A stretch of DNA of 12,135 bases from Trueperaceae bacterium. Its GTDB lineage: Bacteria; Deinococcota; Deinococci; Deinococcales; Trueperaceae. Made by a program: the position numbers and the translations under genes. Shown here one piece after another: positions 82 to 10,349 of the stretch. The stretch lies in contig JBBDRK010000032.1 in assembly GCA_040905465.1 (NCBI GenBank), positions 1 to 12,135 on the forward strand. The letters are read 5' to 3'. Position 1 is the first letter of the stretch. Each line of letters begins with the position of its first letter. Below the pieces are notes generated by a model. That model was not told the origin of the DNA, searched no databases, and saw nothing but the letters and a program-made list of their open reading frames with translations.

Positions 82-720
82 TCACGGTTCCATCACCGTC
101 CGTTCCACTATCACGGCCACCGCACCCTCGTGCACCGCGATGCGCGGTCCGTCCATCGCCCGGTTGGCCAGACCTAACCCGACCCCGAAGGGCAGGGGAG
201 CGTCGGAAAGCGGGTAGTCTGCCCCGGCGACGGTGCAACGGGACTGCTCGAGCGCCAGCAGGCTGAACGTCATGCCGGGCGGCAGCGCCAGGTCGAGGGT
301 GTCGCCGGCCGTCAGCGGATAGGCGTCGCGCACGCCATCGTGAAGCGAGATGGCTATCCCCTGTGTCCGGAGCCGTGCTCCTATCAGCAGCGCAGCCAGC
401 GACTGGTCGAGCCGGGAGCCGAAGGCCCCCAGCACCAGCAACTCATCGGCGCCCCGCTCCATGGCCAGATCTATCGCCAGCTCGAGATCGAGCTGGTCCT
501 TGCGGACCGGGTGACGCAGTTGCGGAAGTTCCGGAAAGCTTGCCAGGTCGGCTTCCGCTACCGAATCGAAGTCGCCCACGATCGCCGCCGGCTCGAGCCC
601 CAGCGCCAGTGCGTGCCGCAGCCCCGAGTCAGCCGCCAGAACGAGCGAGTGGCCCGCCAGCAACTCCTCGAGGTGAGGCGACGGCGCCAAACGGCCGCCG
701 GCCAGGATCACCGCCTTCAT
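82..720 (-). CDS. thiN: Thiamine diphosphokinase (thiamine pyrophosphokinase)
   Basis: 212 aa. Family motifs AADSG, GDFDS, KDQLDLELA, GSRLDQ and C-terminal YPL...GLGLAN. GGAGG/AGGA RBS upstream of the ATG. Lies in a thiamine transport cluster. Confidence 0.93.
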   Translation of the reverse strand: MKAVILAGGRLAPSPHLEELLAGHSLVLAADSGLRHALALGLEPAAIVGDFDSVAEADLASFPELPQLRHPVRKDQLDLELAIDLAMERGADELLVLGAFGSRLDQSLAALLIGARLRTQGIAISLHDGVRDAYPLTAGDTLDLALPPGMTFSLLALEQSRCTVAGADYPLSDAPLPFGVGLGLANRAMDGPRIAVHEGAVAVIVERTVMEP

Positions 721-754
721 CGTCCTGCCTCCGGCAGAGCACTCGCCCGGTAGC

Positions 755-1741
755 TCACGAGTCTTCCAACTCCACCCAGGCCGACGCCGGAACGTCGAGT
801 CCCACTTCGTCCCCTGCCGACGGGTCCGACGGCAGCTCGCGCCGATACCCCTCCCAGGTCAGGCCGGCGCCCCAGGAGGGGACGACCAGCGTGAGCCGTA
901 AGCGGTGGCCCGCTCGCTCCACGGCCTCTACCCGGGCCGGCAGGCCGCCCGTCAGGCTCACCAGGTCGTCACGCAACAGCAACGGTCCCGGACCGAGTCC
1001 GGGAGCGCTCACTTCCCCTCTCCCAAAGATGTTGCGGTACCCGAGGAAGCGTGCCGACCAGGCATCGCGGGGGCGAGCCAGCACCTCGTCGCTCGGCCCA
1101 AGTTGGACGATGCGACCGGCCTTCATGAGCGCAACCCGCTCGGCAATTGCGAACGCCTCCGCCTGGTCGTGGGTAACGTACAGCGCCGTCACCCCCAGGT
1201 CGGCGAGGAGCGTTCTCAGTTCGAGTTGCAACGATTGCCGCAACTCTGCGTCGAGGTTCGACAGCGGCTCGTCGAGCAGCAGCAGCGAAGGCTCCACCGC
1301 CAGCGCTCTGGCCAGCGCTACCCGCTGCTGCTGCCCGCCGGAGAGCTCGAACACCCTCCGCCGCTCGTAGCCGGCCAGCCCCACCACTTCCAAAAGCTCC
1401 GCCACCCGCCCTCTGACCTCGGCGGCGGGTCGCCGCTGCTCCACCAGCGAGAAGCCGATATTGCCGGCCACGTCCAGGTGCGGGAACAGCGCATAGTCCT
1501 GGAACACCACCCCCATGGCACGCTTCTGAGGCGGAAGCCCGGTGATCTCGCGTTCGCCGTGCACGATGCGGCCGCGGTCGGGGTGTTCGAGCCCGGCCAC
1601 CAGGCGCAGCAGCGTGCTCTTGCCGCACCCGGAAGGTCCCAGGAGTGCGACGGTCTGGCGTTGCGGCAGCTCGAGCGACACAGCCTCCAACGCGCGGATG
1701 GAGCCGAATCGCTTGCTGAGGTCGACAAGACGGAGAGTCAT
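755..1741 (-). CDS. thiQ: ABC importer ATP-binding subunit, ThiQ by context (PotA/FbpC-like)
   Basis: Walker A GPSGCGKS, Q-loop FQDYALFPH, signature LSGGQQQR, Walker B LLLDE, H-loop VTHD. Directly downstream of thiP. Confidence 0.85.
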   Translation of the reverse strand: MTLRLVDLSKRFGSIRALEAVSLELPQRQTVALLGPSGCGKSTLLRLVAGLEHPDRGRIVHGEREITGLPPQKRAMGVVFQDYALFPHLDVAGNIGFSLVEQRRPAAEVRGRVAELLEVVGLAGYERRRVFELSGGQQQRVALARALAVEPSLLLLDEPLSNLDAELRQSLQLELRTLLADLGVTALYVTHDQAEAFAIAERVALMKAGRIVQLGPSDEVLARPRDAWSARFLGYRNIFGRGEVSAPGLGPGPLLLRDDLVSLTGGLPARVEAVERAGHRLRLTLVVPSWGAGLTWEGYRRELPSDPSAGDEVGLDVPASAWVELEDS

Positions 1742-1762
1742 CGGGGCGTGCCGATCATACCG

Positions 1763-3340
1763 TCACAACTCGCCGGAACTCGCACCGGAGCGCTCCAGGA
1801 CCATCATCGCCAGGGCGGTGACGGCCATCAGAATCACCGCCAGCGCGAGTGCGGATGCGTAGCTGAGCGCCCCCGGCCGACCCAGGCGGTCGAAGATCGC
1901 CACCGGTATGGTGGCGAACTCCGGCCGGGTAATCACCAGCGTGGCACCGAACTCTCCCATCGACACGGCGAATGCGAAGGCGGCGGCGGTCGTGAGCGAT
2001 GGCCTCAGAAGCGGAAGCTCGACACGGAGGAGCCGCGACCGGGACCCCGCGCCGAGCGTGGCCGCCGCCTCCGTCAGGCTGGCGGGAAGGGCGCGCAACG
2101 CCGGCAACAACGCCCGAGCAACGAACGGGAAGGCCACCAGAGTGTGAGCGCACAGCAGCCCCCAGGGGCTTGTTGCCAGGCGCGGGAAGGCCAGGAGATA
2201 ACCGAGCCCCAGCGTCACGGCACTGGCCGCCAGCGGCAGCAGGCTGGCCTCGTCGAGCCAGCGCCAACCCCCCCGTACCACCGCATAGGCGAAGGCGAAA
2301 CCGAGCGCTACCGCCGCAACCATGGTGCCGGCGGCGAACAGCAATGAGTTCGATACGGCGGCTCCGGCGCCCGTGAAGGTGGCCGTCCGCTGCCCCTGGG
2401 CGAGTGCCCGGAAGCCTGCCAGCGACGGTTCTCCCTGACCCGACGGCCAGAAAGCCTGCACGGTGAGAGCGACCAGCGGCGACAGCACCAGCACCGCGGC
2501 GAAGGTCAACTGCAGCGCGAGCAGGACCTTTGCCACCGTTCGGGGCTTGGGCAGCGGCCGGCCGGAACCGGCCATGGCGACCGCCAGTCGGGACTGCAGC
2601 ACCACGTAGAACCGGCTCACCAACGCCACCACCAGTAACTGGGCGATAACCAGCACGGCGGCGGCGTCGAGGCGCAGGAGGCGGGCGGTGAGCCGGTAGA
2701 TCTCCACCTCGACAGTGGGCAGCCCTGGCGCCAGGATCAGGATCACACCGAACGAGGTGAATGTGAACACGAAGACCAGCGCTGCCGCAGCCGCCAGCGC
2801 CGGCGCTGCCAAGGGGAGGTCTATCCGCCAGATCGTGCGCCAGGAGGTCGCTCCCAACACCGCCGAGGCGTCCCGAAGGCGCGGAGCGGTCGCCTCGAGG
2901 TAGGAGCCCACCACGCGCACGACGACCGGGTAGTTGTAGAACACGTGAGCGAGCAGGATCAGTGTCAGCGTCCCGCGAAGGTCGAGTCCGAGGACGCCGC
3001 GGGGACCGACCAGCGCCAGGAATCCGATGGCAGCGACCACGGTCGGCATGACGAAGGGGACCGTGAAGGCACTGCGCAACAGCCGCTTGCCGGCGAAGTC
3101 GTAGCGGCCGAACAGCAGCGCGCCGGGCAGTCCGAAGAGCACGGTCAGCGCCGTCGACAGCAGCGCCTGGGCCAGTGTGAAGCCGAACCTGCCCCAATAG
3201 TAGGGATTGCCGAGCACCGCCAGCAGCCCTTCCACATCCGCGCTGCGTGCGACGATCGCCGCCAGCGGGAAGAGAAAGAACACGGCCAGGAAGGCAACCG
3301 CCAGAAGACCGAGGCCGTGCGCCAGCGTTTGATCTCGCAT
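1763..3340 (-). CDS. thiP: Thiamine ABC transporter permease (two fused TM domains, ThiP/FbpB type)
   Basis: 525 aa, hydrophobic, with two EAA loops (DASAVLGA, EAAATLGA) plus PFVMPT, LAHVFYNYP, FTSFG and MGEFGAT motifs. Confidence 0.9.
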   Translation of the reverse strand: MRDQTLAHGLGLLAVAFLAVFFLFPLAAIVARSADVEGLLAVLGNPYYWGRFGFTLAQALLSTALTVLFGLPGALLFGRYDFAGKRLLRSAFTVPFVMPTVVAAIGFLALVGPRGVLGLDLRGTLTLILLAHVFYNYPVVVRVVGSYLEATAPRLRDASAVLGATSWRTIWRIDLPLAAPALAAAAALVFVFTFTSFGVILILAPGLPTVEVEIYRLTARLLRLDAAAVLVIAQLLVVALVSRFYVVLQSRLAVAMAGSGRPLPKPRTVAKVLLALQLTFAAVLVLSPLVALTVQAFWPSGQGEPSLAGFRALAQGQRTATFTGAGAAVSNSLLFAAGTMVAAVALGFAFAYAVVRGGWRWLDEASLLPLAASAVTLGLGYLLAFPRLATSPWGLLCAHTLVAFPFVARALLPALRALPASLTEAAATLGAGSRSRLLRVELPLLRPSLTTAAAFAFAVSMGEFGATLVITRPEFATIPVAIFDRLGRPGALSYASALALAVILMAVTALAMMVLERSGASSGEL

Positions 3341-3347
3341 TGCCGCA

Positions 3348-3353
3348 AGTGTA
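3348..3353 (-). promoter_or_regulatory. -10 element (TACACT) of a probable leaderless thiP promoter
   Basis: TACACT ends 7 nt before the thiP ATG. No SD upstream and no consensus -35. Confidence 0.6.
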
Positions 3354-3378
3354 CCGGCAGGAGCGAGCGGTCGCTCTA

Positions 3379-3407
3379 TTGACAGGAATCGGGTTGGCCG
3401 CTAATGT
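3379..3407 (+). promoter_or_regulatory. Sigma70-type promoter for the leader and ABC exporter operon
   Basis: TTGACA (3379-3384), 17-bp spacer, TAATGT (3402-3407). Predicted TSS near 3414. Confidence 0.8.
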
Positions 3408-3436
3408 TATTGCCGATAGCGAGCAGTGGAGCACAG

Positions 3437-3502
3437 ATGACGAAGATCTTCCACATCTACCTCACCGGCGACCCGCAAGGGGAGGAGTCTGCCTGCTCGT
3501 AG
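3437..3502 (+). CDS. Putative attenuator leader peptide, 21 aa (MTKIFHIYLTGDPQGEESACS)
   Basis: GGAG at 3428-3431, 5 nt before ATG 3437, with TAG at 3500-3502. Lies between the promoter and the terminator. Its 3' end is complementary to the terminator 5' arm. Below the ORF-track size cutoff. Confidence 0.75.
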   Translation: MTKIFHIYLTGDPQGEESACS

Positions 3503-3539
3503 CCTAGTCGACTGACCGCTTACGACCGTGGGTGACTCC
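3484..3539 (+). promoter_or_regulatory. Predicted anti-terminator stem
   Basis: GGAGTC/GACTCC (3484-3489 with 3534-3539), GCCTGC/GTGGGT (3491-3496 with 3528-3533) and TCGTAG/TTACGA (3497-3502 with 3520-3525). About 18 bp including G-U pairs. Mutually exclusive with the terminator. Confidence 0.65.
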
Positions 3540-3565
3540 GAGAGCGCCCACGGTCGTTTCTTTGT
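3522..3565 (+). terminator. Intrinsic terminator in the 5' leader (attenuator)
   Basis: ACGACCGTGGGTG (3522-3534) pairs with CGCCCACGGTCGT (3545-3557): 13 bp with one G-U, plus an inner CTC/GAG. Followed by TTCTTTGT. Lies upstream of the ABC start at 3627. Confidence 0.85.
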
Positions 3566-3626
3566 CCCCAACGACCGGGCCTCCGGCGCGCCATCAACGA
3601 CGACGACCTGTCCAGCGTAGGAGATC

Positions 3627-5612
3627 ATGACCAGCAGCAGCTTCAACCGAGCCGGAACCGGCGACCGCCGGAACCAGGGCAGCGGGGCCACCCTCGCTCG
3701 CTACCTCAGGCCTCAACTCGGCAAGGTCGTGTTGATGGCTGCCCTTCTGGTCGGCGCGATCGGCCTGCAACTGTCCATCCCGCAGATCCTTCGCGGTTTC
3801 ATAGACAACGCAATGGCCGGGGTCCAGGTGGCAGAACTGCGCCGGACCGCAGTCTGGTTCCTGGCGATCGCCTTCGGCTACCAGTTGCTGGCGGCCGTGG
3901 CGACCTACGTGGGTGCCGACGTGGGCTGGACGGCGACCAATCGACTCCGGCGCGAGCTGGCCGGCCACATCCTGGGGCTCGACATGTCCTTCCACACCGC
4001 GCGCACGCCGGGCGAGATGATCGAGCGGATAGACGGCGATGTGACCGCCTTGTCGAACTTCTTCAGCCAGTTCTCGGTACGCGTTTTCGGAGGGTTGCTG
4101 CTGCTCCTGGGCATCCTGATCCTGCTGTGGTTGGAGAACCCGCTGGTTGGTCTGGTCCTCACCCTGTTTACCGGTCTCGAGCTCGTGGTCCTGGCCTGGA
4201 CGCGGCGGTTGGGCGTGCCGGCGACGATCGAAGAGCGCGAGGTGAACGCCAGGCTGTTCGGCTTCATCGAAGAGCGGTTGGGCGGCATAGAGGACTTGCG
4301 CGCCAACGGCGCCGGCGCTCACGCCGTGCACCGTTTCGGTGCGGTGATGCGCGACTTCTTCCACGGCACCCGCAGAGCCTGGATGATGCGTTCGCTCGGG
4401 TGGCTGCTGTCGTACGGCTTGTTCATCGCCTCCAGCGCGACACTATTGGCCGCCGCGATAGTGCTCGTGTCGCAGGGTTCGATCACCCTCGGGACCGGTT
4501 ACATGATCTTTCAGTATCTGGTGATGCTGCAGACTCCGATCGACCAGATAACCCAGCAGATGCAGGAGTTGCAGAAGGCAGCGGCCAGCATCGGACGGGT
4601 ACGCAACCTGTTCGCGGAGCAGGGGACGCCCGAGCCGACGGGAGGACCGGTACTGCCGGCCGGTGCCCTGGCGGTCGAGTTCGACCGGGTCTCGTTCGCC
4701 TATGGCGAACCCGTAACCAACGGCGATCCTTCGGATGCGGCCGCTGGCGATCACAGGGCTGGCGCCGACGGAGGCCGAGATCGGCCCGGCGGCACGCTGA
4801 ACGACGTGAGTTTCCGGTTGCCGGCGGGCAAGGTCCTGGGACTGCTGGGGCGCACCGGCAGCGGCAAGACGACCATGACGCGCCTGCTCTTCAGGCTCTA
4901 CCAGCCGACCTCGGGGCGGATAGTTCTCGGTGGAGTGGAGTCGGCGAGGGTGAGGACCGGATCGTTGCGAGGACGCGTGGGGCTGGTAACCCAGGAGGTG
5001 CAGCTCTTTCAGGCGAGCGTTCGCGACAACCTCACCTTCTTCCGCCAGGACGTGCCCGACGAGGAGCTGACGGACCTGTTGAACGGCCTGGGCATGAGTC
5101 GCTGGTTGGCTTCGCTGCCGGAAGGACTCGACACCATTCTCACTGCCGGGGGCGGCAACCTCTCGGCCGGCGAGGCCCAACTGCTCGCGTTCGCCAGGGT
5201 GTTCCTCAAGGATCCCGGACTGGTGGTGTTGGATGAACCGTCGTCTCGACTCGATCCGGCGACTGGGCGTCAGCTCGAGCGGGTAGTCGACCGGCTCCTT
5301 GCCGGCCGTACCGGCATCCTCATCGCCCACCGGCTGGAGACGGTGCAGCGAGCCGATTACGTCATGGTGCTCGACGGTGGACGAGCGGTCGAGTTCGGCG
5401 AGCGGCAGCGGCTGGTCCTCGACCCGGAGAGCCACTATGCGCGCCTGCTTGCCGCGGCCGGGCTGGCAGACGCGCCGGTGGGCGCCCGGTCCGGAACCGC
5501 GGCCGGCACCGCGGCCGGCACCGCTCTCGGCACCGCTCTCGGCACCGTTGCCGATACCAGCGAGCAGGCGTTGGCGAGCGGCCGGCGAGGCCAGGGGAGG
5601 GCAGGCCGATGA
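3627..5612 (+). CDS. Type IV ABC exporter half-transporter (TMD-NBD), subunit 1 of a heterodimer
   Basis: N-terminal TM domain, Walker A GRTGSGKT, degenerate signature LSAGEAQ, Walker B VVLDE, H-loop IAHR. AGGAG RBS at 3619-3623. Confidence 0.92.
   Translation: MTSSSFNRAGTGDRRNQGSGATLARYLRPQLGKVVLMAALLVGAIGLQLSIPQILRGFIDNAMAGVQVAELRRTAVWFLAIAFGYQLLAAVATYVGADVGWTATNRLRRELAGHILGLDMSFHTARTPGEMIERIDGDVTALSNFFSQFSVRVFGGLLLLLGILILLWLENPLVGLVLTLFTGLELVVLAWTRRLGVPATIEEREVNARLFGFIEERLGGIEDLRANGAGAHAVHRFGAVMRDFFHGTRRAWMMRSLGWLLSYGLFIASSATLLAAAIVLVSQGSITLGTGYMIFQYLVMLQTPIDQITQQMQELQKAAASIGRVRNLFAEQGTPEPTGGPVLPAGALAVEFDRVSFAYGEPVTNGDPSDAAAGDHRAGADGGRDRPGGTLNDVSFRLPAGKVLGLLGRTGSGKTTMTRLLFRLYQPTSGRIVLGGVESARVRTGSLRGRVGLVTQEVQLFQASVRDNLTFFRQDVPDEELTDLLNGLGMSRWLASLPEGLDTILTAGGGNLSAGEAQLLAFARVFLKDPGLVVLDEPSSRLDPATGRQLERVVDRLLAGRTGILIAHRLETVQRADYVMVLDGGRAVEFGERQRLVLDPESHYARLLAAAGLADAPVGARSGTAAGTAAGTALGTALGTVADTSEQALASGRRGQGRAGR
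5493..5552 (+). repeat. In-frame 12-bp tandem repeat, 5 copies (GTAA-GTAA-GTAL-GTAL-GTVA)
   Basis: ggaaccgcggcc ggcaccgcggcc ggcaccgctctc ggcaccgctctc ggcaccgttgcc. Confidence 0.85.
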
Positions 5613-7360
5613 GCGGTTCGCATCCGGACCCGTTGCGACTGGCCATCAGGCTGGTCGGCCACCGGCGTCCACTCTTCCTATTCAATTGCCTGCTCTGGGG
5701 CGTGATCCACTCCCTTCCGGTGCTCTACGGGGTGTTCGTGAAGGCGCTCTTCGATGCGCTCACCGGCGAGAGCCCGGCCGGGGCCAGCCCCTGGACGTTC
5801 CTCGCCCTGGCGCTGGCGGTAGACGCCGCCAGGCTCATCGGCCTGGCCGGCGGCATCCGGACCTGGAGTACCTACTGGATAGAGATCACCCTGCTGGTGC
5901 GCCGCAACCTGCTCGAGTACCTGCTCACCGCCCCCGGCTCGAGACGCCTGCCGGACTCGCCGGGCGAAGCGATAAGCCGCTTTCGGGACGACGTGAACGA
6001 CATCGCGGAGTACGTGGAGACCTGGATCGACTTCTGGGGGCTGGCCGCTTTCGCGCTGGTGGCGTTGACAGTGATGGTCAGCATCGATCCGTTGATGACC
6101 GGCCTGGTTTGCCTGCCCTTGGTGCTGACATTCCTGCTCACCGGGTTGCTCAGGCCCCGCATCCGCCGGGTGCGCAAGCTGATGCGCGAGACCACCGGTC
6201 GCGTCACCGACTACATCGGTGAGATGGCGGGCGGTGTCCAGGCTCTCAAGGTTTCGGCGAGCGAGGAGTCTGCGCTCCGTCACTTCGACCGGCTGAATGG
6301 CAGACGCCGTCAGGCAGCGCTGGAAGACACGCTCATAACCGAGCTGTTCAAGTCCGTCACCGACAACATGGTGAACGTTGCTACCGGGATCATCCTCCTG
6401 CTCGCCGCCGGGGCGCTTCGGGACGGCAGCTTCACGGTGGGGGATTTCGCGCTGTTCGTGGCCTACTTGCCCCGCCTCACCGGCGTGATGTCGTTCATCG
6501 GCGCGATGCTGGTGCAGCACAAGCGGACCGCCATCGCCTTCGAGCGGCTCGAGCGTCTCATGGCAGGGGCCGGCAGCGAGGTCGCGGTGGCCGATTCGGT
6601 CCTGCCCGTTCACGGGCTGCCACCGGTTTTCCGGGATCCGCGCCCGGAACCGTTGCCGCTGCGCACCCTGGAGGTAGCCGGGTTGAGCTACCGCCATCCG
6701 GACGGAGCTCACGGCGTGGAAGACGTCTCCTTCACCCTGGAGCGAGGGTCGTTCACCGTGATCACCGGTCAGGTCGGCTCTGGTAAGTCGACGCTCCTAA
6801 GGGTGCTGCTGGGTCAACTGCCGGCCACCGCCGGGAGGATCGGTTGGAACGGTCTGCAGGTCGACGATTCGGCGTCGTTTTTCGTGCCGCCGCGCAGCGC
6901 CTACACGCCGCAGGTGCCCCGGCTGTTCAGCGACACGCTGCGCGAGAACCTGGTGCTCGGCGCGGACGTCACCGCCGACGCCGTCGCCAACGCTCTCGAG
7001 CTCTCGGTCATGAGCGAGGACGTCGCGCGCCTGGACCGGGGTCTCGACACGCCGGTAGGTAGCCGCGGCGTCAAGCTCTCCGGCGGCCAGGTGCAGCGCA
7101 GCGCGGCGGCGCGCATGTTCCTGCGCGAAGCCGAGCTGCTGGTGTTCGACGATCTGTCGAGCGCGCTGGATGTGGAGACCGAGACCCTGCTGTGGCAGCG
7201 CCTGGAGCGGTGGAAGGGCGTCACCTGCCTGGTGGTTTCACACCGTCCGGCAGCGTTCGCGCGAGCCGACCGGATCCTGGTGCTGAACGACGGCCGGCTG
7301 GTTGTCGCCGGGACTGCCGACGAGCTACGGCTGGCTGAAATGGGAGCAGGGTCACGGTAG
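5609..7360 (+). CDS. Type IV ABC exporter half-transporter (TMD-NBD), subunit 2 of a heterodimer
   Basis: ATGA overlap with subunit 1. TM domain, Walker A GQVGSGKS, canonical LSGGQ, Walker B LVFDD with the catalytic E replaced by D, H-loop VSHR. Confidence 0.92.
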   Translation: MSGSHPDPLRLAIRLVGHRRPLFLFNCLLWGVIHSLPVLYGVFVKALFDALTGESPAGASPWTFLALALAVDAARLIGLAGGIRTWSTYWIEITLLVRRNLLEYLLTAPGSRRLPDSPGEAISRFRDDVNDIAEYVETWIDFWGLAAFALVALTVMVSIDPLMTGLVCLPLVLTFLLTGLLRPRIRRVRKLMRETTGRVTDYIGEMAGGVQALKVSASEESALRHFDRLNGRRRQAALEDTLITELFKSVTDNMVNVATGIILLLAAGALRDGSFTVGDFALFVAYLPRLTGVMSFIGAMLVQHKRTAIAFERLERLMAGAGSEVAVADSVLPVHGLPPVFRDPRPEPLPLRTLEVAGLSYRHPDGAHGVEDVSFTLERGSFTVITGQVGSGKSTLLRVLLGQLPATAGRIGWNGLQVDDSASFFVPPRSAYTPQVPRLFSDTLRENLVLGADVTADAVANALELSVMSEDVARLDRGLDTPVGSRGVKLSGGQVQRSAAARMFLREAELLVFDDLSSALDVETETLLWQRLERWKGVTCLVVSHRPAAFARADRILVLNDGRLVVAGTADELRLAEMGAGSR

Positions 7361-7439: not shown

Positions 7440-7580
7440 ATGATGAGCATTCTCAGACGGCTAAAAGACAGATTGTTCGGCAATGACGCCGGCCGCGTGC
7501 GCAATCGGACCGTCCGCCGCGAGCGGGCCACCTTGCGGCGCTGGGCAGAGCGCGCGCAAGGCGACCGCTTCAATCTCTGA
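7440..7580 (+). CDS. Unannotated small Arg-rich protein, 46 aa (MMSILRRLKDRLFGNDAGRVRNRTVRRERATLRRWAERAQGDRFNL)
   Basis: AGGGGAG SD at 7425-7431, then an 8-nt A-rich spacer, ATG 7440 and TGA 7578-7580. Fills the intergenic gap without overlapping either neighbour. Confidence 0.62.
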   Translation: MMSILRRLKDRLFGNDAGRVRNRTVRRERATLRRWAERAQGDRFNL

Positions 7581-7615: not shown

Positions 7616-8665
7616 TCAGCGAGCCTGTTCCGGATCGCGACCCTGCGACACTACCTGAGTCCAAAGGTCCAGCCAGCGCTCGAGACCTTCGGCGATCAGA
7701 CCGGGTGCCAGTTCGGCGGTCTGCTCCTCGTCGGGAACGTCGGCGTGGAGCTCGAACTCCCGCGGTAGCGGCACATCCTGCCGCACCGGGTACACGAACA
7801 TCACGCCTGGGATATCGGCCTGCACCTCTTCACTCAGAAGGAAATCGATGAACAGCCGGGCCGCGTCCAGATTCTGGGTGCCGCGGAGGATACCGGCCGC
7901 CTCCACCTGCCGGTAGGCGCAGCTTCGGCAAAGCAGGTTGGCCGTCGGCGAGCTGTCGAGCGGCTCTTCGGCAAACATGACCTCGGCCGCCGGACTGGTG
8001 GCGTACGAGAGAACGATCGGCCGGTCGCCGCCGTAGCGGGTGAAGGCGGTGTAGTAGGCGTCGGACCAGCCGCTGGCGACCTGCAGGTCGTTGTCGCGAA
8101 GGTCGGCCCAGTAGCTCAGCCAGCCGTCGTCTCCGAAGCGCTCGACGGTAGTGAGCAGGAATGCCAGGCCGGGCGAAGAGGTAGCCGGGTCGGCCACCAC
8201 AGTCAGGCCGCGGTAGCGGGGCGCGGTGAGTTCGGAGATGTCCTGGGGAGGAGCCAGGCCTTCGCGCTCGAACCAGCCAACGTCGATGTTGAACAGCACG
8301 TATCCGACGTCGATCGGTGTTACCCGGTGTTCCGGGTCGAACACGAAGCGCTCCGGCACCTTGTCGAGCAGGGGGCTGCGGTACGGCTCGAAGATGTTCG
8401 CCTCGAGTGCCCGCGTGAGCAGGCTGTTGTCGACGCCGAACAATACATCGGCGATCGGGCGGGCGCGCGTGAGGATGGCGCGGCTCACCACCTCGCCGGC
8501 ATCGCCCGCCGGCAGTATCTGTACGTCCACTCCCGTGTCCTGGCTGAACCGGTCCAGCACGTCGCTGGAAAGGTCGAAGGAATCGTGGGTGAGCACTCTG
8601 AGCGGCTGGGCGTGGCCCACGGCGAGCAACAGCAGGCTTAGCGTCAGGACGATGCTTCTGAACAT
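7616..8665 (-). CDS. thiB: Thiamine ABC transporter substrate-binding protein
   Basis: Motifs THDSF, GDAG, ADVLFGVDN, DPATSSPGLAFL, GWSDAYY, SYATSPAAE, RQVEAAG. Signal peptide ends GHA. Start placed at ATG 8665 (349 aa) after GGAAAGGG, because the longer ORF start lies inside the riboswitch. Confidence 0.93.
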   Translation of the reverse strand: MFRSIVLTLSLLLLAVGHAQPLRVLTHDSFDLSSDVLDRFSQDTGVDVQILPAGDAGEVVSRAILTRARPIADVLFGVDNSLLTRALEANIFEPYRSPLLDKVPERFVFDPEHRVTPIDVGYVLFNIDVGWFEREGLAPPQDISELTAPRYRGLTVVADPATSSPGLAFLLTTVERFGDDGWLSYWADLRDNDLQVASGWSDAYYTAFTRYGGDRPIVLSYATSPAAEVMFAEEPLDSSPTANLLCRSCAYRQVEAAGILRGTQNLDAARLFIDFLLSEEVQADIPGVMFVYPVRQDVPLPREFELHADVPDEEQTAELAPGLIAEGLERWLDLWTQVVSQGRDPEQAR

Positions 8666-8722
8666 TTTGTGGCCCTTTCCGTCACCGGAGAGGAGCGCGA
8701 ACATAGGCGGGAGTCTTGGGAA

Positions 8723-8817
8723 CATCACGCTTCCTACGCCCGTACGAACGGGATCAGGTACTAGGGTCTGCTCTCAGCCAAGTGACGCGTGTCGCGCCCG
8801 AGGCACCCCTGGTGACG
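8723..8817 (-). ncRNA. TPP riboswitch (thi-box)
   Basis: Minus strand reads CGTCACCAGGGGTGC...GCTGAGA...GACCC...TACCTGATCCCGTTCGTACGGGCGTAGGAAGCGTGATG, with P1 = CGTCAC/GTGATG. Downstream, GCTCCTCTCC can pair imperfectly with the thiB RBS (GGAAAGGGC), which suggests translational control. Confidence 0.95.
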
Positions 8818-8822
8818 AATCA

Positions 8823-8905: not shown

Positions 8906-10231
8906 TCATCGTCCCGTCCGGTCACTGACGTCAGCCGGCGGCCGGTACCGATTCGGGCCCGGCGCGGCCCTTCCGGCGCCGTCCCGACCGACCGGTCCTC
9001 CGATGCTCGTGCGAGCCCCGCTGCGCGGATCGGGTAGTTTCAACGCCGCAACCGCCAGGGTGACCAGGAAGATCGCGCTGCCGGCCAGGAAAGCGGCGCG
9101 GTAGCCGAACAGGCTCGCCACTCCGACGCCGACCAGCGGTGCCACCGCACGCGAGCCGGACATCACAGAGTTGTCCAGGCCGAATGCGCTGCCGATCCGT
9201 CCTCCGCTGCTGTAGCCGGTCAGCAAGGCAGACAGGGACGGCATCACACCCCCAATTGCCACGCCGCTCAGCGCGTTCAGCAACAGCAGTTGCCAGGGGT
9301 GGGTTACGAAAGCCATCGGAATGTAGGCGAGGGCGGCGGCCAACGCCGACCAAACCAGTATCCGCTTGTGGCCGACGCGGTCGCCGAGGTTGCCCAGGAA
9401 GATGGCGCTCGCCGTTCCGGTGGCCGAGGAGATCCCGATCACCAGTCCTATCATCGTGCCTACCCGCTGGGGATCCACCATTATCAGGGGGATGAACAGC
9501 GGCAGCACCGGCACCAGCAGGCCGCGCCCCAAAGTGGAGGTAAAACGGGCCGTAAAAGCCACCGCCACCCCGCGCGTGCCCAGGATCTGTTGCCAGTCGC
9601 CCAGCACTCCGGCGCCAGCAGCTCGTGACGGCTGGAACTTCTCGCGAACGCCGAACAGCACCAGCACCCCTCCCAACGTCAGCAACGCCGCGGTAACGAC
9701 GAACGCGATGCGAAATCCGTAAAGGTCGGCGAGCACCCCGCCCAGCACCGGCCCCACCGCCACACCGCTCCACAGGGCGGTTTGCAGCACCCCCATCGCA
9801 TAGCCGGAGCGTTCCTTCGGTGTGATCGACGCCACCAGGGCGTTGGCGGCCGACCCGATACCGGTGATGAGGCCCTGAATCGCCCGGAGCAGAGTGAGTT
9901 CCTCCGCGCTGCGGGCGAACGCCATGAGAAGTATTATCACCGCGCCCCCGAACATCGCGCGCGCCACCATCGGCTTGCGGCCAAGGCGGTCGGCGGCGGC
10001 CCCCCACAGCGGCGAGGCGATCATCATGGTGATCGCCTGCGCGCTGAACACCGCGCCCGCCCAGAACACCAGGCTGGTACCGGTGCTCGATCCGAGCGAC
10101 TCGACGTAGTTGGGAAGGAACGGGAAGATCATCGAAAAGCCGATCGCCGACAGCAACTGGGCAACGCTCAGGACTATCAGCGCCCGGCGCCAATCGGTCC
10201 CATCCCGGTTGTCATCTTGCCGACTTTTCAC
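8906..10231 (-). CDS. MFS transporter, DHA1 / MdtG-like efflux
   Basis: WRRAL...GFSMIFPFLPNYV, motif A WGAAADRLGRK, LRAIQGL, antiporter motif GPVLGG and second-half GNLGDRVGHK. Start uncertain: GTG 10231 was chosen because a candidate promoter (CTGTCG-17-TACCAT, -10 at 10283-10278) overlaps the upstream ATGs. Confidence 0.85.
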   Translation of the reverse strand: MKSRQDDNRDGTDWRRALIVLSVAQLLSAIGFSMIFPFLPNYVESLGSSTGTSLVFWAGAVFSAQAITMMIASPLWGAAADRLGRKPMVARAMFGGAVIILLMAFARSAEELTLLRAIQGLITGIGSAANALVASITPKERSGYAMGVLQTALWSGVAVGPVLGGVLADLYGFRIAFVVTAALLTLGGVLVLFGVREKFQPSRAAGAGVLGDWQQILGTRGVAVAFTARFTSTLGRGLLVPVLPLFIPLIMVDPQRVGTMIGLVIGISSATGTASAIFLGNLGDRVGHKRILVWSALAAALAYIPMAFVTHPWQLLLLNALSGVAIGGVMPSLSALLTGYSSGGRIGSAFGLDNSVMSGSRAVAPLVGVGVASLFGYRAAFLAGSAIFLVTLAVAALKLPDPRSGARTSIGGPVGRDGAGRAAPGPNRYRPPADVSDRTGR

Positions 10232-10349
10232 GATGCCGTTCGCATGCCCGTTCCCTCGGCCGACGCATGCAATCGCCATGGTACCGCCGGCCACGAGGAG
10301 CGACAGTTGCATCGGCCGGATGGGTACGAACGGATCGCCACCGGGCGGG

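Follow-up and report, generated by a model that had tools for sequence, protein, structure and literature searches.

A probable ribosome-mediated transcription attenuator upstream of a heterodimeric ABC exporter operon in Trueperaceae

In Bacillus subtilis, the bmrCD genes for a heterodimeric ATP-binding cassette (ABC) exporter are preceded by the leader bmrB. Read-through into bmrCD requires that this leader be translated, and it increases with antibiotics that target the ribosome (PMC4191407). The bmrB open reading frame (ORF) has 53 codons, and the terminator is located inside it (PMC4191407). From Deinococcus deserti, leader peptides at or next to the transcript 5' end and a predicted transcription attenuation were described (PMC4007540). 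We analyzed a stretch of 12,135 nt from a Trueperaceae bacterium (assembly GCA_040905465.1, contig JBBDRK010000032.1, forward strand), in the following called the window, which carries a leader with an upstream ORF (uORF) in front of two ABC half-transporter genes. Ribosome-mediated attenuation as a design is already known, and bmrB-bmrCD is the closest experimental case. The leaders of vmlR and msrD, which encode antibiotic-resistance ABCF proteins, and the uORF attenuator of whiB7 also combine a short uORF with an anti-antiterminator, an antiterminator, and a terminator and respond to stalled ribosomes. Unlike the leader treated here, they control different proteins in different phyla, and the sequences are unrelated. 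To our knowledge, hardly any cis-regulators of transport have been described in Deinococcota-type bacteria. Literature searches, which left most subscription journals uncovered, found no published description of the Trueperaceae leader, and none of the papers listed by one of them contains the word Truepera. The leader family, so far found only in Trueperaceae, appears to be undescribed.

To judge from its sequence and from that of its relatives, the leader of the window is probably a ribosome-mediated transcription attenuator that gates the operon of a heterodimeric ABC exporter. Translation of the uORF would most likely decide whether transcription stops at the terminator hairpin. All evidence for the attenuator is computational, and the transcription starts of all leaders were inferred from promoter spacing. 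By sequence reading, the whole leader is contained in the 286-nt gap between a divergent permease gene (1763–3340, minus strand) and the first ABC gene (start at 3627), the ATG of which is preceded by AGGAG. The parts of the leader are the following:

3379–3384, plus strand: −35 box TTGACA, read from the sequence, with a 17-nt spacer to the −10 box
3402–3407, plus strand: −10 box TAATGT, read from the sequence
near 3413–3415, plus strand: transcription start inferred from promoter spacing, about 23 nt 5' of the uORF
3419–3431, plus strand: 5' strand of the pairing P1, which pairs with 3487–3500 in minimum-energy folds and includes the Shine-Dalgarno (SD) sequence of the uORF
3428–3431, plus strand: SD sequence GGAG of the uORF, 5 nt ahead of the ATG at 3437 and inside the P1 5' strand
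3437–3502, plus strand: uORF of 21 codons plus TAG, read from the sequence, peptide MTKIFHIYLTGDPQGEESACS, with equivalents in related leaders
3460–3466, plus strand: 5' strand of the pairing P1b (CCUCACC, segment 1 of the original prediction), which pairs with GG.GAGG at 3479–3485 inside the P1 domain
3480–3493, plus strand: conserved 14-nt box GGGAGGAGTCTGCC, common to P1/P1b and the antiterminator and near-invariant in alignment A2 (63 leaders)
3484–3503, plus strand: 5' strand of the antiterminator, based on folding, shuffle test, and cognate test
3518–3539, plus strand: 3' strand of the antiterminator, which spans the entire 5' arm of the terminator and the start of its loop
3522–3565, plus strand: intrinsic terminator with arms 3522–3534 and 3545–3557 and tail 3558–3565 (−28.1 kcal/mol)

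Like bmrB-bmrCD (PMC4191407), the locus has a leader ORF, alternative stem-loops, and an intrinsic terminator before a heterodimeric exporter. The exporter is also of the same class as BmrCD, with one degenerate ATP site. Unlike in bmrB, where the terminator is in the ORF (PMC4191407), the uORF stop codon is located at least 18 nt 5' of the terminator core in 64 leaders, and therefore a ribosome at the stop would cover the box and leave the terminator free. A further difference to bmrB is that the Trueperaceae anti-antiterminator includes the SD sequence or the start codon of the uORF itself and that most relatives are leaderless. The likeness to bmrB is one of architecture only; leader sequences were not compared, and no sequence relation is expected. 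With the leader peptides of D. deserti (PMC4007540), the Trueperaceae leaders share the phylum and the closeness of the ORF to the promoter: the ATG follows the −10 box by 5–13 nt, leaderless or nearly so, in 33 of the 58 leaders with a recognizable promoter. Unlike the D. deserti leader peptides (PMC4007540), the Trueperaceae leader precedes an exporter and lacks their residue bias, and the copy in the window is SD-led. As in the trp-type 1-2-3-4 attenuator (PMC4007540), there are three mutually exclusive pairings, and the position of the ribosome would select antiterminator or terminator. Unlike in the trp type, segment 1 corresponds to the loading site and the first ~10 codons, not to regulatory codons near the stop, and there is no codon run.

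The original prediction, made from the letters alone, had placed a terminator at 3522–3565, and this terminator is present and covaries. The arms ACGACCGTGGGTG (3522–3534) and CGCCCACGGTCGT (3545–3557), followed by TTTCTTTG (3558–3565), were read directly from the sequence and form a G+C-rich hairpin of 13 bp plus three inner pairs. None of 1000 shuffles reached the −26.9 kcal/mol of the window terminator (all window shuffle tests used 1000 dinucleotide shuffles of one strand of the window alone). In alignment A2, 92.8% of the cells were paired, versus 31%–55% when the partner was slid. Seven of 11 pairs had changed on both sides (49 cells), which was matched by none of 500 shuffles. Arm variants among the leaders were GGCCGUGGG/CCCACGGCC, GACUGUAGGCA/UGCCUACAGU, and GCUGUGGG/CCCACAGC. 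The predicted promoter TTGACA-17-TAATGT was also found, and a regular expression for a TTGAC-type −35 box and a TAnnnT −10 box at a distance of 16–18 nt matched 57 of 64 related leaders. Direct reading revealed the predicted SD sequence and the 21-codon uORF at 3437–3502 as well. A consensus promoter/terminator scan of 2800–4200 missed both the leader promoter and the terminator, for which its thresholds are responsible: only three of six positions of the −10 box agree with TATAAT, and the terminator loop exceeds the length allowed. Minimum-energy folding of 3414–3630 gave a more stable structure than shuffles (z = −2.3, 3/200).

Folding of 3477–3541, which lacks the terminator 3' arm, resulted in pairing of 3484–3503 with 3518–3539 over 19 bp (−26.4 kcal/mol); the antiterminator of about 18 bp in the original prediction was thus recovered as drawn. 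The duplex of 3480–3503 and 3516–3541 had −24.4 kcal/mol, matched by 12 of 1000 window shuffles. With the 3' arm withheld, nearly all leaders folded such that the box and the next bases were paired to the 5' arm of the terminator and the beginning of its loop. The antiterminator core in fixed register was 83.2% paired, versus 33%–53% when slid. Among 35 representatives, cognate strands paired better than non-cognate strands (−23.4 versus −20.4 kcal/mol; 0/20000 permutations, p < 5e-5), while kinship of the genomes inflates permutation tests of this kind. The alignment-free cognate test gave p = 0.69 for a control segment pair. Single leaders showed matching changes on both strands. The loop CGACC always accompanies U9 of the box (GGUC:GACC), and in one leader (L067) this pairing is replaced by GAUC:GAUC. 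An arm variant GAGGG, which is mismatched in the terminator, pairs with CCUCG of the antiterminator in four leaders (L032, L040, L034, and L075), and in a low-GC genus GCAGG:CCUGC is changed to GUAGG:CCUAC.

Related leaders were collected in several ways. By blastn, only four other genomes were hit, and only with 3480–3579 of the window, which comprises the uORF end and the terminator. Five of the loci found in a strict pattern scan of species genomes were true, and the titles of their records name Trueperaceae, Truepera, or an uncultured bacterium; a further match in a record titled Halobacteriales (L008) had no 3' arm and was discarded as a chance match. Matches to the ABC protein at E ≤ 1e-60 were present in 89 of 128 family genomes. 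The covariance model R1, built from six leaders, was tried on the 30 best ortholog loci and had a match immediately 5' of the ABC gene in 29 of them; the remaining locus is cut by a contig end. Genome-wide, R1 matched 68 places in 66 of the 128 Trueperaceae genomes, and two of these places (L077 and L078) were rejected as false, being an ordinary terminator and a coding stretch. A true leader was present in 65 of the 128 genomes, with one element each save for a duplicated contig in G019. Sixty-four of these 65 genomes also contain the ABC ortholog, and the 65th (G003) has its leader at a contig end. Some leaders that escaped the genome-wide filters were recovered at the locus level. With the model R2, built from 63 leaders, the leader was detected in 22 of 36 genomes sampled within the family; a sample of 114 genomes from the order's other four families gave no match. 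The 128-genome tallies for the ABC protein and R1 include an unpublished genome (G034), on which no locus-level claim depends. Duplicates (L059, L060, L083, and L081, which repeats L010) were dropped, and L071 (contains N) and L072 (degenerate box) were left out, as were L034 from A2 and L065 from A3. Tests that need the 5' region exclude L026, L082, L020, L017, L033, L041, and L018, which are cut by contig or extract ends. The original prediction had proposed to compare the upstream regions of the ABC orthologs; across these regions, the uORF is conserved and the terminator stem covaries.

The strict linkage of the element to the exporter ortholog speaks against an independent small-protein gene with its own terminator, in which case the exporter would be transcribed from a separate promoter and the hairpin would have no control function. 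There would be room for such a promoter, since the spacer from the terminator tail to the ABC start measures 61 nt in the window and can reach about 200 nt in relatives. However, the consensus scan found no promoter-like site in 2800–4200 (it also missed the leader promoter), and the peptide, the C-terminus of which is encoded in either of two frames, is not conserved beyond the RNA pairings. The antiterminator, in addition, is conserved, and its strands pair best with those of the same leader. We regard the separate gene as extremely improbable.

Some exporter orthologs are preceded by other arrangements. In L100 and L105 of one genus and in L102 of another, a different leader with a GGCAGGCAGGAG SD, a uORF of 9–10 codons, and a hairpin is present. 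L101 and L106 of a third genus have an enlarged uORF of about 90 codons, with GCAGAU.../...AUCUGC as the terminator stem.

Each related leader contains an ORF that crosses the near-invariant 14-nt box GGGAGnGGnCUGCC and stops 14–28 nt past the box start. All 33 near-leaderless ORFs are open through the box and end before the terminator, within a span of 15 nt. The distance from their ATG to the box takes 14 distinct values, of which frame 1 accounts for 17 leaders, frame 2 for 16, and frame 0 for none. Indels have therefore respected the reading frame, which would not be required of a purely structural RNA, and this pattern of frame and length argues for translation of the uORF. The remaining leaders, including that of the window, have an SD-led uORF. 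In relatives that are not cut by contig or extract ends the uORF has 19–55 codons. Since the box is read in two frames across the relatives (..GERSAx* or ..GEVCxxxG*), the box itself must be constrained as RNA. The frameshifted uORF of L003 had been considered an assembly error; this was rejected, as the second frame is also that of 16 other leaders. What the computations show are the parts of the leader and that these are conserved, the alternative pairings, and a constraint on the uORF as a coding sequence.

The same attenuator hardware could also sense the shortage of a particular charged tRNA, as in trp/his-type starvation control. The architecture is identical to that of amino-acid attenuators, and several relatives have Arg-rich stretches (RVRR, ARRRH, and LRRRA), but Arg is common in any high-GC coding sequence. 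The original prediction had pointed out that the peptide is without a run of one residue; indeed, the window peptide has none, and no residue or codon run is common to the uORFs of the relatives. Moreover, the controlled genes encode exporter half-transporters, not biosynthetic enzymes. We consider starvation sensing very unlikely.

Transcripts that end just 3' of the box fold differently. In nearly all relatives, the first bases of the transcript form a pairing (P1) with the 3' half of the box and the bases that follow it. In leaderless leaders, P1 consists of AUGGCAGAC with GUCUGCC plus flanks (GCUA:UAGC and GUCA:UGAC), in SD-led leaders of GGAGCAGGC with GCCUGCUC, and in the low-GC genus of UAGUAGG with CCUACUA. 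The P1 5' strand holds the 5' AUG of the uORF itself in the leaderless relatives and the SD region in the window. Cognate P1 strands paired better than non-cognate strands (−17.6 versus −15.5 kcal/mol, p = 5e-5, n = 30), and the upper helix of P1 was 81% paired in alignment A3 of 32 leaderless leaders. The original prediction had assigned the role of the anti-antiterminator to a helix of segments 1 and 2, which corresponds to P1b. This helix is inside the minimum-energy fold of the window, and at least three of the first five box bases (GGGAG) pair upstream in 50 of 57 leaders, mostly with uORF codons 4–10; its cognate preference is modest (p = 0.011). The pairing of the loading site with 3487–3500 (P1) appears to be the better-supported anti-antiterminator, as judged from these sequence comparisons. 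Attenuator, terminator, and antiterminator of the original prediction were thus upheld in 60-odd leaders, while the segment 1:2 helix needs revision.

The uORF also contains a small covarying hairpin (P2; CNCC, loop, GGN'G). The third codon positions of its Ala and Gly codons covary (CUCC/GGAG, CACC/GGUG, and CGCC/GGCG). P2 was only 66% paired in A3 because several subfamilies misalign. AP[LF]GV was considered as a conserved peptide motif and rejected, as it corresponds to the P2 RNA hairpin; since its third positions covary, no peptide-level conservation is claimed.

The covariation of P2 would also suit a leader that binds a ligand or a protein, with box and hairpins as the sensor and an incidental reading frame. 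The box GGGAGnGGnCUGCC and the stem CCGUGGG/CCCACGG vary unusually little if they served a terminator alone, and the reading of the box in two frames indicates a constraint at the RNA level. An incidental reading frame is difficult to reconcile with the 14 lengths, none in frame 0, and with the ends of 33 of 33 ORFs in a 15-nt span. Leaderless and SD-led versions both retain the start signal inside the P1 strand, three mutually exclusive pairings explain all conserved bases, and no multi-helix junction was seen. Rfam contained no family at E ≤ 1 for the window leader, and 20 related leaders gave a single sub-threshold match (ncS54, 25.1 bits versus a gathering score of 43). A ligand-binding leader is quite unlikely in our opinion.

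For the ribosome-mediated attenuator, we infer the order of events, and slowed early translation (e.g., by ribosome-targeting compounds) as the natural trigger, as follows. The 3' end of the uORF (box GGGAGGAGUCUGCC plus CUGCUCGUAG) could enter one of two mutually exclusive pairings, backward with the uORF loading site (P1, 3419–3431) and with codons 8–10 (P1b), or forward with the terminator 5' arm and loop (antiterminator, 3518–3539). A brisk first ribosome would be on the box and the stop codon as the terminator emerges, so that the antiterminator would be blocked, the hairpin 3522–3557 would form, and transcription would end at 3558–3565. If no ribosome is loaded, P1 and P1b would form first and leave the terminator free, which is the least secure step. 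If a ribosome is held up anywhere from the start to about codon 10, it would cover the backward partners and leave the box free. The free box would then capture the emerging 5' arm, and the polymerase would continue into the exporter genes. By analogy with bmrB-bmrCD, translation-inhibiting compounds are our leading guess for the trigger.

We also folded the transcripts with and without ribosome footprints, a check named in the original prediction. In ensembles of transcripts without the terminator 3' arm (n = 57 leaders), 6.1 antiterminator pairs were expected without a ribosome, 10.3 with a ribosome at the start, 7.7 with a ribosome in mid-uORF, and 0.3 with a ribosome at the stop. The claim that a ribosome at the stop blocks the antiterminator is in agreement with the last value. 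For full-length transcripts, masked folding is uninformative because the terminator dominates; the pair lists are also imperfect for bulged stems.

Several results weigh against the proposed attenuator. In equilibrium folding at full length, the terminator won under every ribosome mask; the switch must therefore be kinetic, which is beyond what folding can prove. The antiterminator was partly populated without a ribosome (mean of 6.1 pairs, 15.2 in the window), which makes termination in the absence of a ribosome uncertain. Covariation of the antiterminator in fixed register was thin (3 pairs, 7 cells) because box and arm are near-invariant and registers slide between subfamilies, and the cognate versus non-cognate test may be inflated by the shared ancestry of the genomes. 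In the window, the P1 duplex (3416–3436 with 3486–3503, −18.7 kcal/mol) was reached by 106 of 1000 shuffles and is not above chance, and the segment 1:2/P1b duplex (3455–3470 with 3476–3490, −9.5 kcal/mol) was at chance level with 604 of 1000 shuffles. U-tracts are weak in several high-GC relatives, and comparison of the related uORFs revealed no peptide-level conservation that would support a specific arrest peptide.

The switch may read whether the loading site is occupied: in leaderless leaders the start codon, and in the window the SD sequence, makes up the 5' strand of the anti-antiterminator. The element may then report the dwell of the first ribosome at or just after initiation. If true, it would respond selectively where conditions or compounds arrest ribosomes during the first peptide bonds, not to slow elongation generally.

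A further segment is located behind the terminator:

3570–3579, plus strand: second copy of the 5'-arm core, AACGACCGGG, which pairs with the terminator 3' arm in the antiterminator-forced fold

This copy (C[CT]GTGGG, or CGTAGGCA where the stem is changed) recurs after the terminator in relatives, with a cognate preference of p < 5e-5 (n = 26). Directly after the U-tract, several leaders are complementary to the ribosome-binding region of the exporter (p = 0.00025), for example UUCUUGCACA with UGUGCAAGAA in L046 (relatives considered for the post-terminator segment: L045–L049, L053, L055–L057, L067, and L004). The copy and the complementary segment may form a second stage that allows translation only on antiterminated transcripts. 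A second translational stage was not evident in the window (3558–3626). The accessibility of the exporter SD was 0.27 in the terminator fold versus 0.39 in the antiterminator fold, and because it is so little changed, the window itself gives no support for translational control.

The exporter genes follow the leader directly:

3627–5612, plus strand: ABC half-transporter A, 661 aa, with Pfam domains ABC_membrane and ABC_tran
5609–7360, plus strand: ABC half-transporter B, 583 aa, with Pfam domains ABC_membrane and ABC_tran

The two genes overlap by ATGA (5609–5612). By its motifs, half-transporter A has a catalytic Walker B (LVVLDE) and a degenerate signature (NLSAGE), and half-transporter B has a Walker B without the catalytic Glu (LLVFDD) and a canonical LSGGQ. 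A non-catalytic Walker B together with a non-canonical signature of the partner is what we take to be the defining pattern of heterodimeric exporters with one degenerate ATP site. TM288 (1e-56) and a TmrAB chain (7e-55) are among the nearest bacterial PDB chains, and no NCBIfam equivalog matched the exporter genes at its cut-off. From its sequence, the pair is assigned to the heterodimeric ABC exporter type with one degenerate ATP site (TM287/288, TmrAB, and BmrCD class).

The exporter operon and its leader are located on the opposite strand within an apparent thiamine importer locus (82–3340 and 7616–8820, both minus strand). On one side of the operon are a thiamine pyrophosphate (TPP) riboswitch (8713–8820; 54.0 bits, gathering score 54.3) and the gene of a thiB-like binding protein, on the other side genes for a thiP-like permease, an ATPase, and a thiamine pyrophosphokinase. 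Of 38 other ortholog loci, 13 have a thiP-like gene in divergent orientation to the leader. A thiB-like gene is convergent after the gene for half-transporter B in four of six genomes checked, and in two of these a TPP riboswitch was found at the gathering score (loci considered for the thiamine context: L015, L019, L021–L025, L029, L031, L039, L042, L084, L091, L094, and L097–L099). The conserved nesting in a TPP-riboswitch-controlled thiamine locus might tie the exporter to vitamin/antivitamin traffic. That sensing of loading-site occupancy, a translational second stage, and this tie to vitamin/antivitamin traffic all hold together is doubtful.

Three further features were noted around the operon. 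A 46-codon ORF (7440–7580, plus strand; MMSILRRLKDRLFGNDAGRV...) with a GGGGAG SD is located in the convergent gap after the gene for half-transporter B and had no Pfam match at E ≤ 1. On the minus strand, in the 3341–3378 region, a TACACT hexamer precedes the ATG of the thiP-like gene (3340) by 7 nt, and no −35 box was seen; this placement would fit a leaderless thiP-like mRNA from a −10-only promoter. A gene for a major facilitator superfamily (MFS) transporter (8906–10312, minus strand) adjoins the TPP riboswitch. In NCBIfam, it most resembles the multidrug efflux protein MdtG, with 230 bits, under the cut-off of 571.

The leader adds a well-supported regulatory RNA family to Deinococcota-type bacteria, mostly to uncultured Trueperaceae. 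It indicates that translation-sensing control of heterodimeric ABC exporters, which is experimentally established for bmrCD in Bacillus, recurs independently. With one 14-nt box, two reading frames, and three competing helices, the leader is a compact natural case, and since leaderless and SD-led versions share the logic, it would be a convenient model for the coupling of leaderless translation with transcription. Should ribosome inhibitors prove to induce the exporter, environmental bacteria would have an intrinsic efflux response of which the leader is a marker.

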